Shown: positions 26,045 to 27,039 of the stretch, one piece after another
How positions within the stretch are numbered: position 1 is the stretch's first letter
Layout of the letters: each line of letters opens with the position of its first letter
Assembly: GCF_053078305.1 (NCBI RefSeq)
Contig: NZ_CP166879.1
Length of the DNA stretch: 64,000 nt
Strand: one strand, 5' to 3'
Translations under genes and position numbers: made by a program
Notes under the pieces: model-generated
What the model was told of the DNA's origin: nothing
The model's input: only the letters and a program-made list of their open reading frames with translations
Databases searched by the model: none

Positions 26045-26489
26045 AATTGTTATTATGAGATATCTATAACACCTGAAGTTGGAAAAAGAAGCAAATAATT
26101 CCTTATAAGGGATCGTTTACTAATATATTTAGATAATCTCATATTTGTTTATGATATACATCTGATTAAGATATAATGGATTATAAATTACTCAAAGATG
26201 AACAAATATCTTCGCCTTTTCTCGTAGAAAGAGACTTGAAACTTATAACACATCTATATAAATGTGATTTAAATCACGGTTTGCAGTAAAAGCAATTGGT
26301 ATAATTCATTGGTATTCCTATTATTTTATCTATTGCGCGAACTATTTTACAACAATAAAAAAGATATACAAACAGCAAGAAGTAAAAATATTCGGATAAA
26401 TAAAAACTTTTGCTACCTTGGTTTCTATAGTCTTTATTTCTAAGTTTTTCATAAGCACTCAAAGACTCATGTATAGGGATGGTTTAATA

Positions 26490-26654
26490 ATGAAACTATT
26501 TTTTTATTTCTCGTTGTTCTTTATAATACAACTTATAAATTCAGACTTAGACACATTAACCCTTTATCTTTTCATAAAGAAAATAATTCTTTCGTTACTT
26601 GCGAGTGTACTGTTTTTATTTGTTTTATCTTTCTTTAATAAAAAGAGGAAATAA
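26490..26654 (+). CDS. putative microcin immunity protein (small two-helix membrane protein)
   Basis: 54 aa from the ATG at 26490 (AGGGA upstream); two hydrophobic helices; stop is 1 nt before the precursor start, the usual immunity-then-precursor order. The longer track ORF begins with TTG. Confidence 0.5.
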   Translation: MKLFFYFSLFFIIQLINSDLDTLTLYLFIKKIILSLLASVLFLFVLSFFNKKRK

Positions 26655-26655
26655 C

Positions 26656-26979
26656 ATGAGAAATATAACAACCGATGAACTTGCTTTAATACATGGTGCA
26701 GGATTAGATAAAGATGCATCCGTTGCAATAGGTACTGCGGCTGGTAGTTTTTTAGGTAAAGCAACAAAAATCCCTGGTGCGGATATAGCAGGAAGTGCAA
26801 TTGGAGGATATATTGGAGGAGTTATTGCTGATGGTTCAAATAGGACAATAACAATACCATCAAACGGTATTAACTATAATCCGGGTATAGGACTTGGAAG
26901 TTTTAATCCAAACTACAATGGAGGTTTATTAAACTCAGGATTTAACTCATCAACATCCTCTTCTAGTAGTGGAAGTTGA
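26656..26979 (+). CDS. class IIb (siderophore-type) microcin precursor, identity unresolved
   Basis: 107 aa; double-glycine-type leader MRNITTDELALIHGAG; Gly-rich core; C-terminal tail SSTSSSSSGS like the serine tails of H47, M and E492; AAGAGGA upstream. Does not match my recollection of MchB, McmA or MceA. Confidence 0.7.
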   Translation: MRNITTDELALIHGAGLDKDASVAIGTAAGSFLGKATKIPGADIAGSAIGGYIGGVIADGSNRTITIPSNGINYNPGIGLGSFNPNYNGGLLNSGFNSSTSSSSSGS

Positions 26980-26988
26980 TTAATTTCT

Positions 26989-27027
26989 AAAGCAGCATAG
27001 CTTATTATGCAGCAATGCTGCTTTTAG
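26989..27027. terminator. hairpin terminator between the convergent microcin precursor gene and mchF
   Basis: Inverted repeat AAAGCAGCAT / ATGCTGCTTT (10-bp stem) followed by T-rich sequence. Confidence 0.45.
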
Positions 27028-27039
27028 TGATATATTATC

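Follow-up and report, generated by a model that had tools for sequence, protein, structure and literature searches.

A rare allele of the class IIb microcin Ec W and its immunity gene in a microcin H47 island

What is encoded by the two short reading frames that lie between the exporter gene mchF and a CPBP-family protease gene, and is their product a new toxin? The locus belongs to a stretch of 64,000 nucleotides from contig NZ_CP166879.1 (assembly GCF_053078305.1), hereafter the window, in which all coordinates below are counted. A reading made from the sequence alone (the sequence-only reading) had taken the pair for an unassigned, serine-tailed siderophore microcin with its own immunity gene, and hence for a possible third toxin of an island that also carries mchB and a second precursor at 34591. 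We find that much of this description stands but that the toxin is already known: it was named microcin Ec W and functionally tested in 2025, and the window carries a rare allele of it. The features of the locus are as follows.

26490 to 26654, + strand: ecWI, the 54-aa immunity protein of Ec W (165 nt; ORF and translation)
26656 to 26979, + strand: ecWA, the 107-aa class IIb precursor of Ec W (106 of 107 aa as in WP_001390454.1)
26656 to 26700, + strand: ecWA leader of 15 aa, MRNITTDELALIHGA, of the double-glycine type
26947 to 26976, + strand: serine-rich tail of ecWA, SSTSSSSSGS, read from the sequence
26746, + strand: A where G is found elsewhere, giving EcWA G31S; the only difference from strain 04-00955 over 741 nt
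26644 to 26649, + strand: Shine-Dalgarno sequence AGAGGA for ecWA, read from the sequence, inside the 3' end of ecWI and 6-7 nt upstream
about 26987 to 27030, no strand assigned: hairpin terminator between the convergent ecWA and mchF stop codons (-19.5 kcal/mol, z = -3.43 against shuffles)
24680 to 24698, no strand assigned: Fur-box-like site, 2 mismatches to the 19-bp consensus, the only strong match in the window
26018 to 27054, no strand assigned: Ec W cassette, 1037 bp, 30% GC; homology to the NCTC10444 MccM-type island ends at 26017 and resumes at 27055

The two genes share the + strand and are separated by a single nucleotide. Read from the ATG at 26490, the ecWI product is MKLFFYFSLFFIIQLINSDLDTLTLYLFIKKIILSLLASVLFLFVLSFFNKKRK (54 aa); the span 26418-27030 originally given for the locus does contain both ORFs, but its left end is a mechanical extension to an in-frame TTG (78 aa, 26418-26654), which we rejected in favor of the sensible ATG start. 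EcWI has two hydrophobic segments on the Kyte-Doolittle scale, at residues ~2-16 and ~31-49, with a peak of 3.07 over residues 32-46, in keeping with the two-helix membrane protein first described. The toxin precursor likewise has the glycine-rich core and serine tail ascribed to it: EcWA contains no cysteine, Gly and Ser make up 21% and 16% of its mature part, and eight of its last ten residues, including the final one, are Ser. Its leader, which runs …ELALIHGA, is of the double-glycine type as proposed but does not end in HGAG. In family alignments of 9 and 16 members G14 is invariant, position 15 is G, A or S, and position 16 is variable or absent, and since the conserved doublet is therefore G14-A15 we assign a leader of 15 aa, after which the C39 domain of MchF is predicted to cut, leaving a mature peptide of 92 aa. 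Conservation further argues that the pair is more than two chance ORFs, since it recurs at ≥99% identity in 116 complete E. coli genomes and since homologous toxin-immunity pairs, conserved at the protein level, are present in other genera.

Microcin Ec W (EcWI/EcWA) was described in April 2025 as a class IIb microcin of E. coli NCTC10444 (Bhattarai, Bucci, Mortzfeld 2025, PMC12999681), with NZ_LR134092 3367763-3368252 as its source locus and ecWI at 3367763-3367927; the reported layout is 165 + 1 + 324 nt, in reverse orientation between mchF and mcmM, and the reported Ec WA has a serine-rich C-terminus, no Cys and a signal peptide of 15 aa with GA at its end. Window positions 26490-26979 are identical to that interval at 487 of 490 nt, the toxins agree at 106 of 107 aa and the immunity proteins at 52 of 54, and the NZ_LR134092 CDS at 3367929-3368252, checked in the record, is WP_001390454.1. 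Because the published coordinates, lengths and position match and only three bases differ, we regard it as virtually certain that the ecWI-ecWA locus is the microcin Ec W pair, in a rare allelic form (EcWA G31S; EcWI I16/F28).

The identification came from a keyword search of the literature and was then confirmed through the genome coordinates. That the locus might instead be an undescribed third toxin of the H47 island could draw on its anonymity in databases and text alike: RefSeq calls the 107-aa product (WP_001390454.1) a "hypothetical protein", the 54-aa ecWI is unannotated in every record examined, scans of both products with NCBIfam, PADLOC and Pfam named no family or returned sub-threshold matches only, and a full-text literature search for the peptide sequence, its sub-strings or the RefSeq accession matched no paper. 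The sub-threshold Pfam matches of EcWA are to MccV (PF17508; E = 0.037, residues 1-57) and Gly-zipper_Omp (E = 0.021), and the family profile, run against PDB sequences, matched none at E < 0.1. The claim of an uncharacterized toxin is nonetheless refuted, and we leave it practically no probability, as PMC12999681 describes this very locus by genome coordinates that we checked against the record, and the toxin and immunity protein proved nearly identical to characterized ones.

The same study also essentially carried out, for the NCTC10444 allele, the cloning and immunity experiments that the sequence-only reading had proposed: the pair was cloned into an mch-based expression strain, in which EcWA without EcWI blocks growth and EcWI rescues it (PMC12999681). 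Ec W kills E. coli, Klebsiella pneumoniae, K. aerogenes, Salmonella Typhimurium, Shigella flexneri, Brenneria and Gibbsiella, and is inactive against Acinetobacter, Pseudomonas, Enterobacter cloacae, K. oxytoca, Proteus and Serratia marcescens, all assays having been run on iron-limited media with the mch (MGE-linking) expression strain (PMC12999681).

The surrounding island supplies the machinery that such a precursor calls for.

25358 to 26044, + strand: mcmM, CPBP-family intramembrane glutamic endopeptidase (NCBIfam CPBP, RefSeq annotation)
27040 to 29142, - strand: mchF, C39-peptidase/ABC exporter (RefSeq annotation of identical loci, NCBIfam)
29135 to 30409, - strand: mchE, HlyD-family adaptor (annotation, NCBIfam)
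30562 to 31014, - strand: mchD, acyltransferase-like (annotation)
31040 to 32590, - strand: mchC (annotation, "MchC protein")
32862 to 33089, - strand: mchB, microcin H47 (annotation, sequence comparison)
33117 to 33326, - strand: mchI, H47 immunity (annotation, sequence comparison)
34140 to 34574, + strand: mchS3, I47 immunity (NCBIfam MchS3, 139 bits)
34591 to 34824, + strand: microcin I47 precursor, 77 aa (translation ends SSSTSSANSGS)
35113 to 36387, + strand: mchS1/mcmK, enterobactin esterase (NCBIfam enterochelin esterase)
36529 to 37653, - strand: mchA/mcmL, glycosyltransferase (NCBIfam glycosyltransferase)

The pair thus sits between mcmM and mchF, as first read, and three class IIb precursors (Ec W, H47 and I47) are served by one mchA/mchS1/mchCDEF maturation and export set, so that the idea of a third precursor sharing one machinery with mchB and the 34591 gene holds. 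In the MccE492 and MccH47 systems MchC and MchD link the siderophore to the C-terminal serine. Ec W is distinct from its two neighbors, EcWA giving no BLASTP match to MchB and a match to I47 in the tail only. Class IIb membership has been defined by a Ser-rich tail ending in Ser, fewer than two Cys, a signal peptide that lies in the first 15 aa and has a GG or GA end, and, no more than 200 bp away, an ORF with a transmembrane segment (PMC11634061); here all four are found, as the tail SSTSSSSSGS, 0 Cys, the doublet G14-A15 and the membrane ORF 1 nt upstream. The linked glycosyltransferase, esterase, MchC/MchD and C39-ABC/HlyD genes are likewise present and full-length within 27040-37653. Together with the published immunity result (PMC12999681), this bears out the original assignment to the catecholate-siderophore microcins with a dedicated immunity gene.

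Over 14 kb the window island is 99.6% identical to the Ec W island of NCTC10444. The I47 precursor is intact in the window and goes unannotated in RefSeq both for strain 04-00955 and for the second NCTC10444 cluster. To the left of the island (~12900-22100) lies a type VI secretion cluster with tssH, hcp, tssL, tssK, tssC and tssB; to the right (38000-62000) follows a CP4-like island with Ag43, YfjI, antirestriction and CbtA/CbeA genes, inside which IS102 RNA (Rfam RF00124, 74.6 bits) is found at 48294-48530. In strain 04-00955 the CP4-like island is followed by kpsF/kpsE. The window contains no tRNA genes.

In classical islands a 742-bp mcmI-mcmA (microcin M) cassette stands in the place of the Ec W cassette. 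The breakpoints of the swap fall inside the flanking genes and include 28 bp at the end of mcmM and 15 bp at the 3' end of mchF; as a consequence, McmM and MchF each have different C-terminal residues in islands of the Ec W type than in those of the MccM type. Among the complete E. coli genomes searched (n = 5426), the Ec W cassette is present in 116 (at ≥99% identity), mcmIA in 260 and the mchF 3' end in 364; the slot is filled by either one cassette or the other, with about a third of mchF-positive genomes carrying Ec W instead of microcin M. This prevalence is well above the "29 genomes" quoted in PMC12999681. The mchF 3' ends themselves fall into two classes, one of ≥99% (108 genomes) and one of 95-99% (254 genomes), which roughly track the cassette. 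We also considered Ec W as a variant of microcin M and rejected it, there being no DNA similarity between the cassettes, a weak, composition-driven protein match, and no NCBIfam family; the distinction from microcin M drawn in the sequence-only reading is thereby upheld, as is that from H47, and Ec W is distinct from I47 as well.

Signals for expression are partly evident within the pair. The position of the Shine-Dalgarno sequence inside ecWI and the 1-nt gap suggest translational coupling of the two genes. Downstream, the predicted hairpin terminator (z = -3.4), anticipated in the sequence-only reading, includes a terminator-like site at 27009-27021 that runs into TTTT. No promoter was assigned, promoter-like hexamers in the region being no more numerous than in shuffles, and directly upstream of ecWI the best Fur-box candidate has 7 mismatches, as expected by chance. 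The Fur-box-like site at 24680 precedes, by 110 bp, a run of genes on one strand (ORF156, mcmM, ecWI and ecWA), and no + strand terminator is listed between mcmM and ecWI (26045-26490); we infer that this site may act in Ec W expression. ORF156 itself (24790-25260, 156 aa) has no family matches and is frameshifted in NCTC10444. Rfam reports no RNA family in or near the Ec W locus.

Relatives of the module extend beyond E. coli and share a Gly-rich conserved core (residues ~17-70) of the form DKDA..G..GG.LG..S.IP.G..GS..GGY.GG...D...TITIP. Homologues of EcWI lie upstream of related toxins in Salmonella, in Serratia and on a metagenome contig; the toxin and immunity proteins of the relatives co-occur and co-align, and C39-ABC/HlyD exporters are adjacent. 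One relative is encoded on the Salmonella enterica plasmid CP191517.1 (P0007; L004 9772-10330): a 109-aa protein, 72% identical, with the tail …SGGASGPGGGS ending in Ser, encoded co-directionally and directly after homologues of mchC, mchD, mchE and mchF, its start overlapped by an EcWI-like ORF. We take this plasmid-borne protein for a probable third class IIb microcin of the W type, so far unreported. The second member is Gq W of the plant pathogen Gibbsiella quercinecans (103 aa; Mortzfeld et al. 2024, PMC11634061), which, according to the authors of PMC12999681, is alone among class IIb microcins in being significantly similar to Ec W, the two forming the "W" clade; Gq W was not among the matches of our family sequence searches, and the clade relationship is taken from that paper.

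Other relatives lack the serine tail. A metagenomic protein (P0005) is 73% identical, with an EcWI homologue upstream and a non-serine tail, and homologues from Serratia, Pantoea/Mixta and metagenomes (P0012-P0020, P0035-P0042), at 30-46% identity, have the same leader and core and no serine tail. On the Serratia contig (L008 4402-8294) genes for HlyD, a C39-ABC exporter and a 56-aa immunity homologue are followed, after a 1-nt gap, by a 97-aa toxin, with no mchCD. A profile search of genome contigs with a 3-sequence alignment returned one degraded copy only, in Enterobacter sp. 10-1 (NISF01000008.1, L010 7805-8228), where an intact EcWI-like ORF of 71 aa accompanies a toxin frameshifted after ~34 conserved residues; this EcWI-like gene may be an orphan immunity gene. 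Since the tail-less relatives share the leader, the core and the immunity-then-toxin layout, the comparison suggests an older toxin-immunity pair to which the serine tail was added as a module, a point that we did not find stated in PMC12999681 or PMC11634061. The broader reading, that the W module family exists in two forms, a plain class IIa-type one and a siderophore-tailed class IIb one (Ec W and the Salmonella plasmid copy), we put forward tentatively, at somewhat less than an even chance.

By analogy with MccE492, MccH47 and MccM and from the anatomy seen here, we infer the modification chemistry, cleavage site, receptor route and membrane target of Ec W as follows. From the 1-nt gap and the Shine-Dalgarno position, ecWI and ecWA would be translated from one mRNA. 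MchA would glucosylate enterobactin and MchS1 linearize it to a C-glucosylated linear siderophore, which MchC/MchD would then ester-link to Ser107, the C-terminal serine of the precursor; the final Ser of SSTSSSSSGS is accordingly the predicted attachment site for glycosylated linear enterobactin. The MchF C39 domain would remove the 15-aa leader after G14-A15, MchEF-TolC would export the 92-aa peptide, and TonB-dependent catecholate receptors would import it into the target cell. There the Gly-rich N-terminal half (~17-61, probably two helices with GxxxG-type motifs) would act at the inner membrane, EcWI, a small inner-membrane protein, protecting the producer. The inner membrane is our first choice among possible targets, though with no better than evenly balanced confidence, because of the Gly-rich core, the sub-threshold Pfam matches, the low-confidence helices and the membrane-embedded immunity protein. 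The helices come from an AlphaFold2 model built on 16 sequences, whose low confidence (mean pLDDT 49.5; helices at 19-36 and 42-61, then a disordered C-terminal half) rules out its use in a fold search and leaves it as no more than a faint indication of two helices.

It is important to weigh this pathway against the proposal that Ec W is an unmodified class IIa-type microcin, its serine tail dispensable for killing and its uptake independent of siderophores. Most relatives of the toxin core do without a Ser tail, the Serratia one has only HlyD and a C39-ABC exporter beside it and no mchCD, and the N-terminal Pfam match, weak as it is, is MccV-like. In the E. coli copy, however, the tail is canonical for class IIb, and this copy always lies within an mchA/S1/CDEF island; moreover, Ec W was assayed in iron-limited medium in an MGE-linking strain (PMC12999681), and activity of its sister microcins was observed only in iron-depleted media. 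We therefore consider the unmodified form very unlikely and retain the siderophore-linked pathway as the preferred one.

The three base differences from NCTC10444 translate into EcWA G31S, EcWI V16I and EcWI L28F. The EcWI residues I16/F28 are common to strain 04-00955 and its closest matches, whereas S31 sets the window copy apart: residue 31 is Gly in all 8 relatives of one alignment (A1) and nearly invariant in another (A4). The S31 protein is public as WP_072010583.1 and three other accessions, on 3 contigs, against at least 1000 contigs for the canonical protein, and the allele is absent from the 5426 complete E. coli genomes, in which the best match (99.9%) differs at 26746. The S31 allele is thus real and rare, and the toxin tested in PMC12999681 was the G31 form of NCTC10444, not the S31 form of the window.

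Substitution of a near-invariant glycine may alter potency or specificity. It could even be that the window holds a decaying or inactive Ec W allele, in which G31S, within a GxxxGG motif, weakens or abolishes toxicity, with immunity the main reason for retaining the cassette. Such decay would fit the conservation of Gly at this position among the other aligned relatives, the scarcity of S31 (in no complete genome searched) and the precedent of Enterobacter sp. 10-1, where an intact immunity gene accompanies a degraded toxin. Yet the ecWA ORF is full length, its leader, tail, Shine-Dalgarno sequence and terminator are intact, Gly to Ser is a conservative change within a Gly/Ser/Ala-rich segment, and the recurrence of S31 in several independent NCBI accessions speaks against a one-off sequencing error. 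We judge an inactive allele improbable, and continue to regard the window copy as a rare form of a known toxin.

Many carriers of the Ec W cassette are Shiga-toxin-producing and extraintestinal strains, and microcin typing by mcmA, mchB and mciA misses Ec W, as its toxin is a "hypothetical protein" in RefSeq and its immunity gene is unannotated. If the two-form family is true, a serine tail has been grafted in nature onto an existing toxin; the tail-less relatives, the Salmonella plasmid copy and the rare allele all bear on how bacteriocins may gain siderophore "Trojan-horse" tails.

Set beside known systems, Ec W shares with H47, I47 and E492 a double-glycine leader, a Ser-rich tail with a terminal Ser, a small membrane immunity protein and the need for MchA/S1/CDEF-type (MceC/D/I/J/G/H-type) genes, whereas the toxic cores of those three are unrelated to its own. 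With microcin M (McmA/McmI) it has in common the class IIb architecture, the export and maturation genes and the chromosomal slot, but the cassette lies in the opposite orientation and there is no nucleotide similarity across it; the protein match between McmA and EcWA is only ~34%, over the leader and low-complexity stretches, and was obtained without composition correction. Compared with the Serratia copy, whose layout is class IIa-like, that of Ec W is class IIb. Finally, the window copy matches Ec W of NCTC10444 in genes, position between mcmM and mchF, orientation, lengths (54 aa, 1 nt, 107 aa) and island, and differs at EcWA residue 31 (S31 here, G31 there) and EcWI residues 16 and 28 (I16 and F28 here, V16 and L28 there); NCTC10444 has two mch clusters, while the window shows one, carrying Ec W together with H47 and I47.
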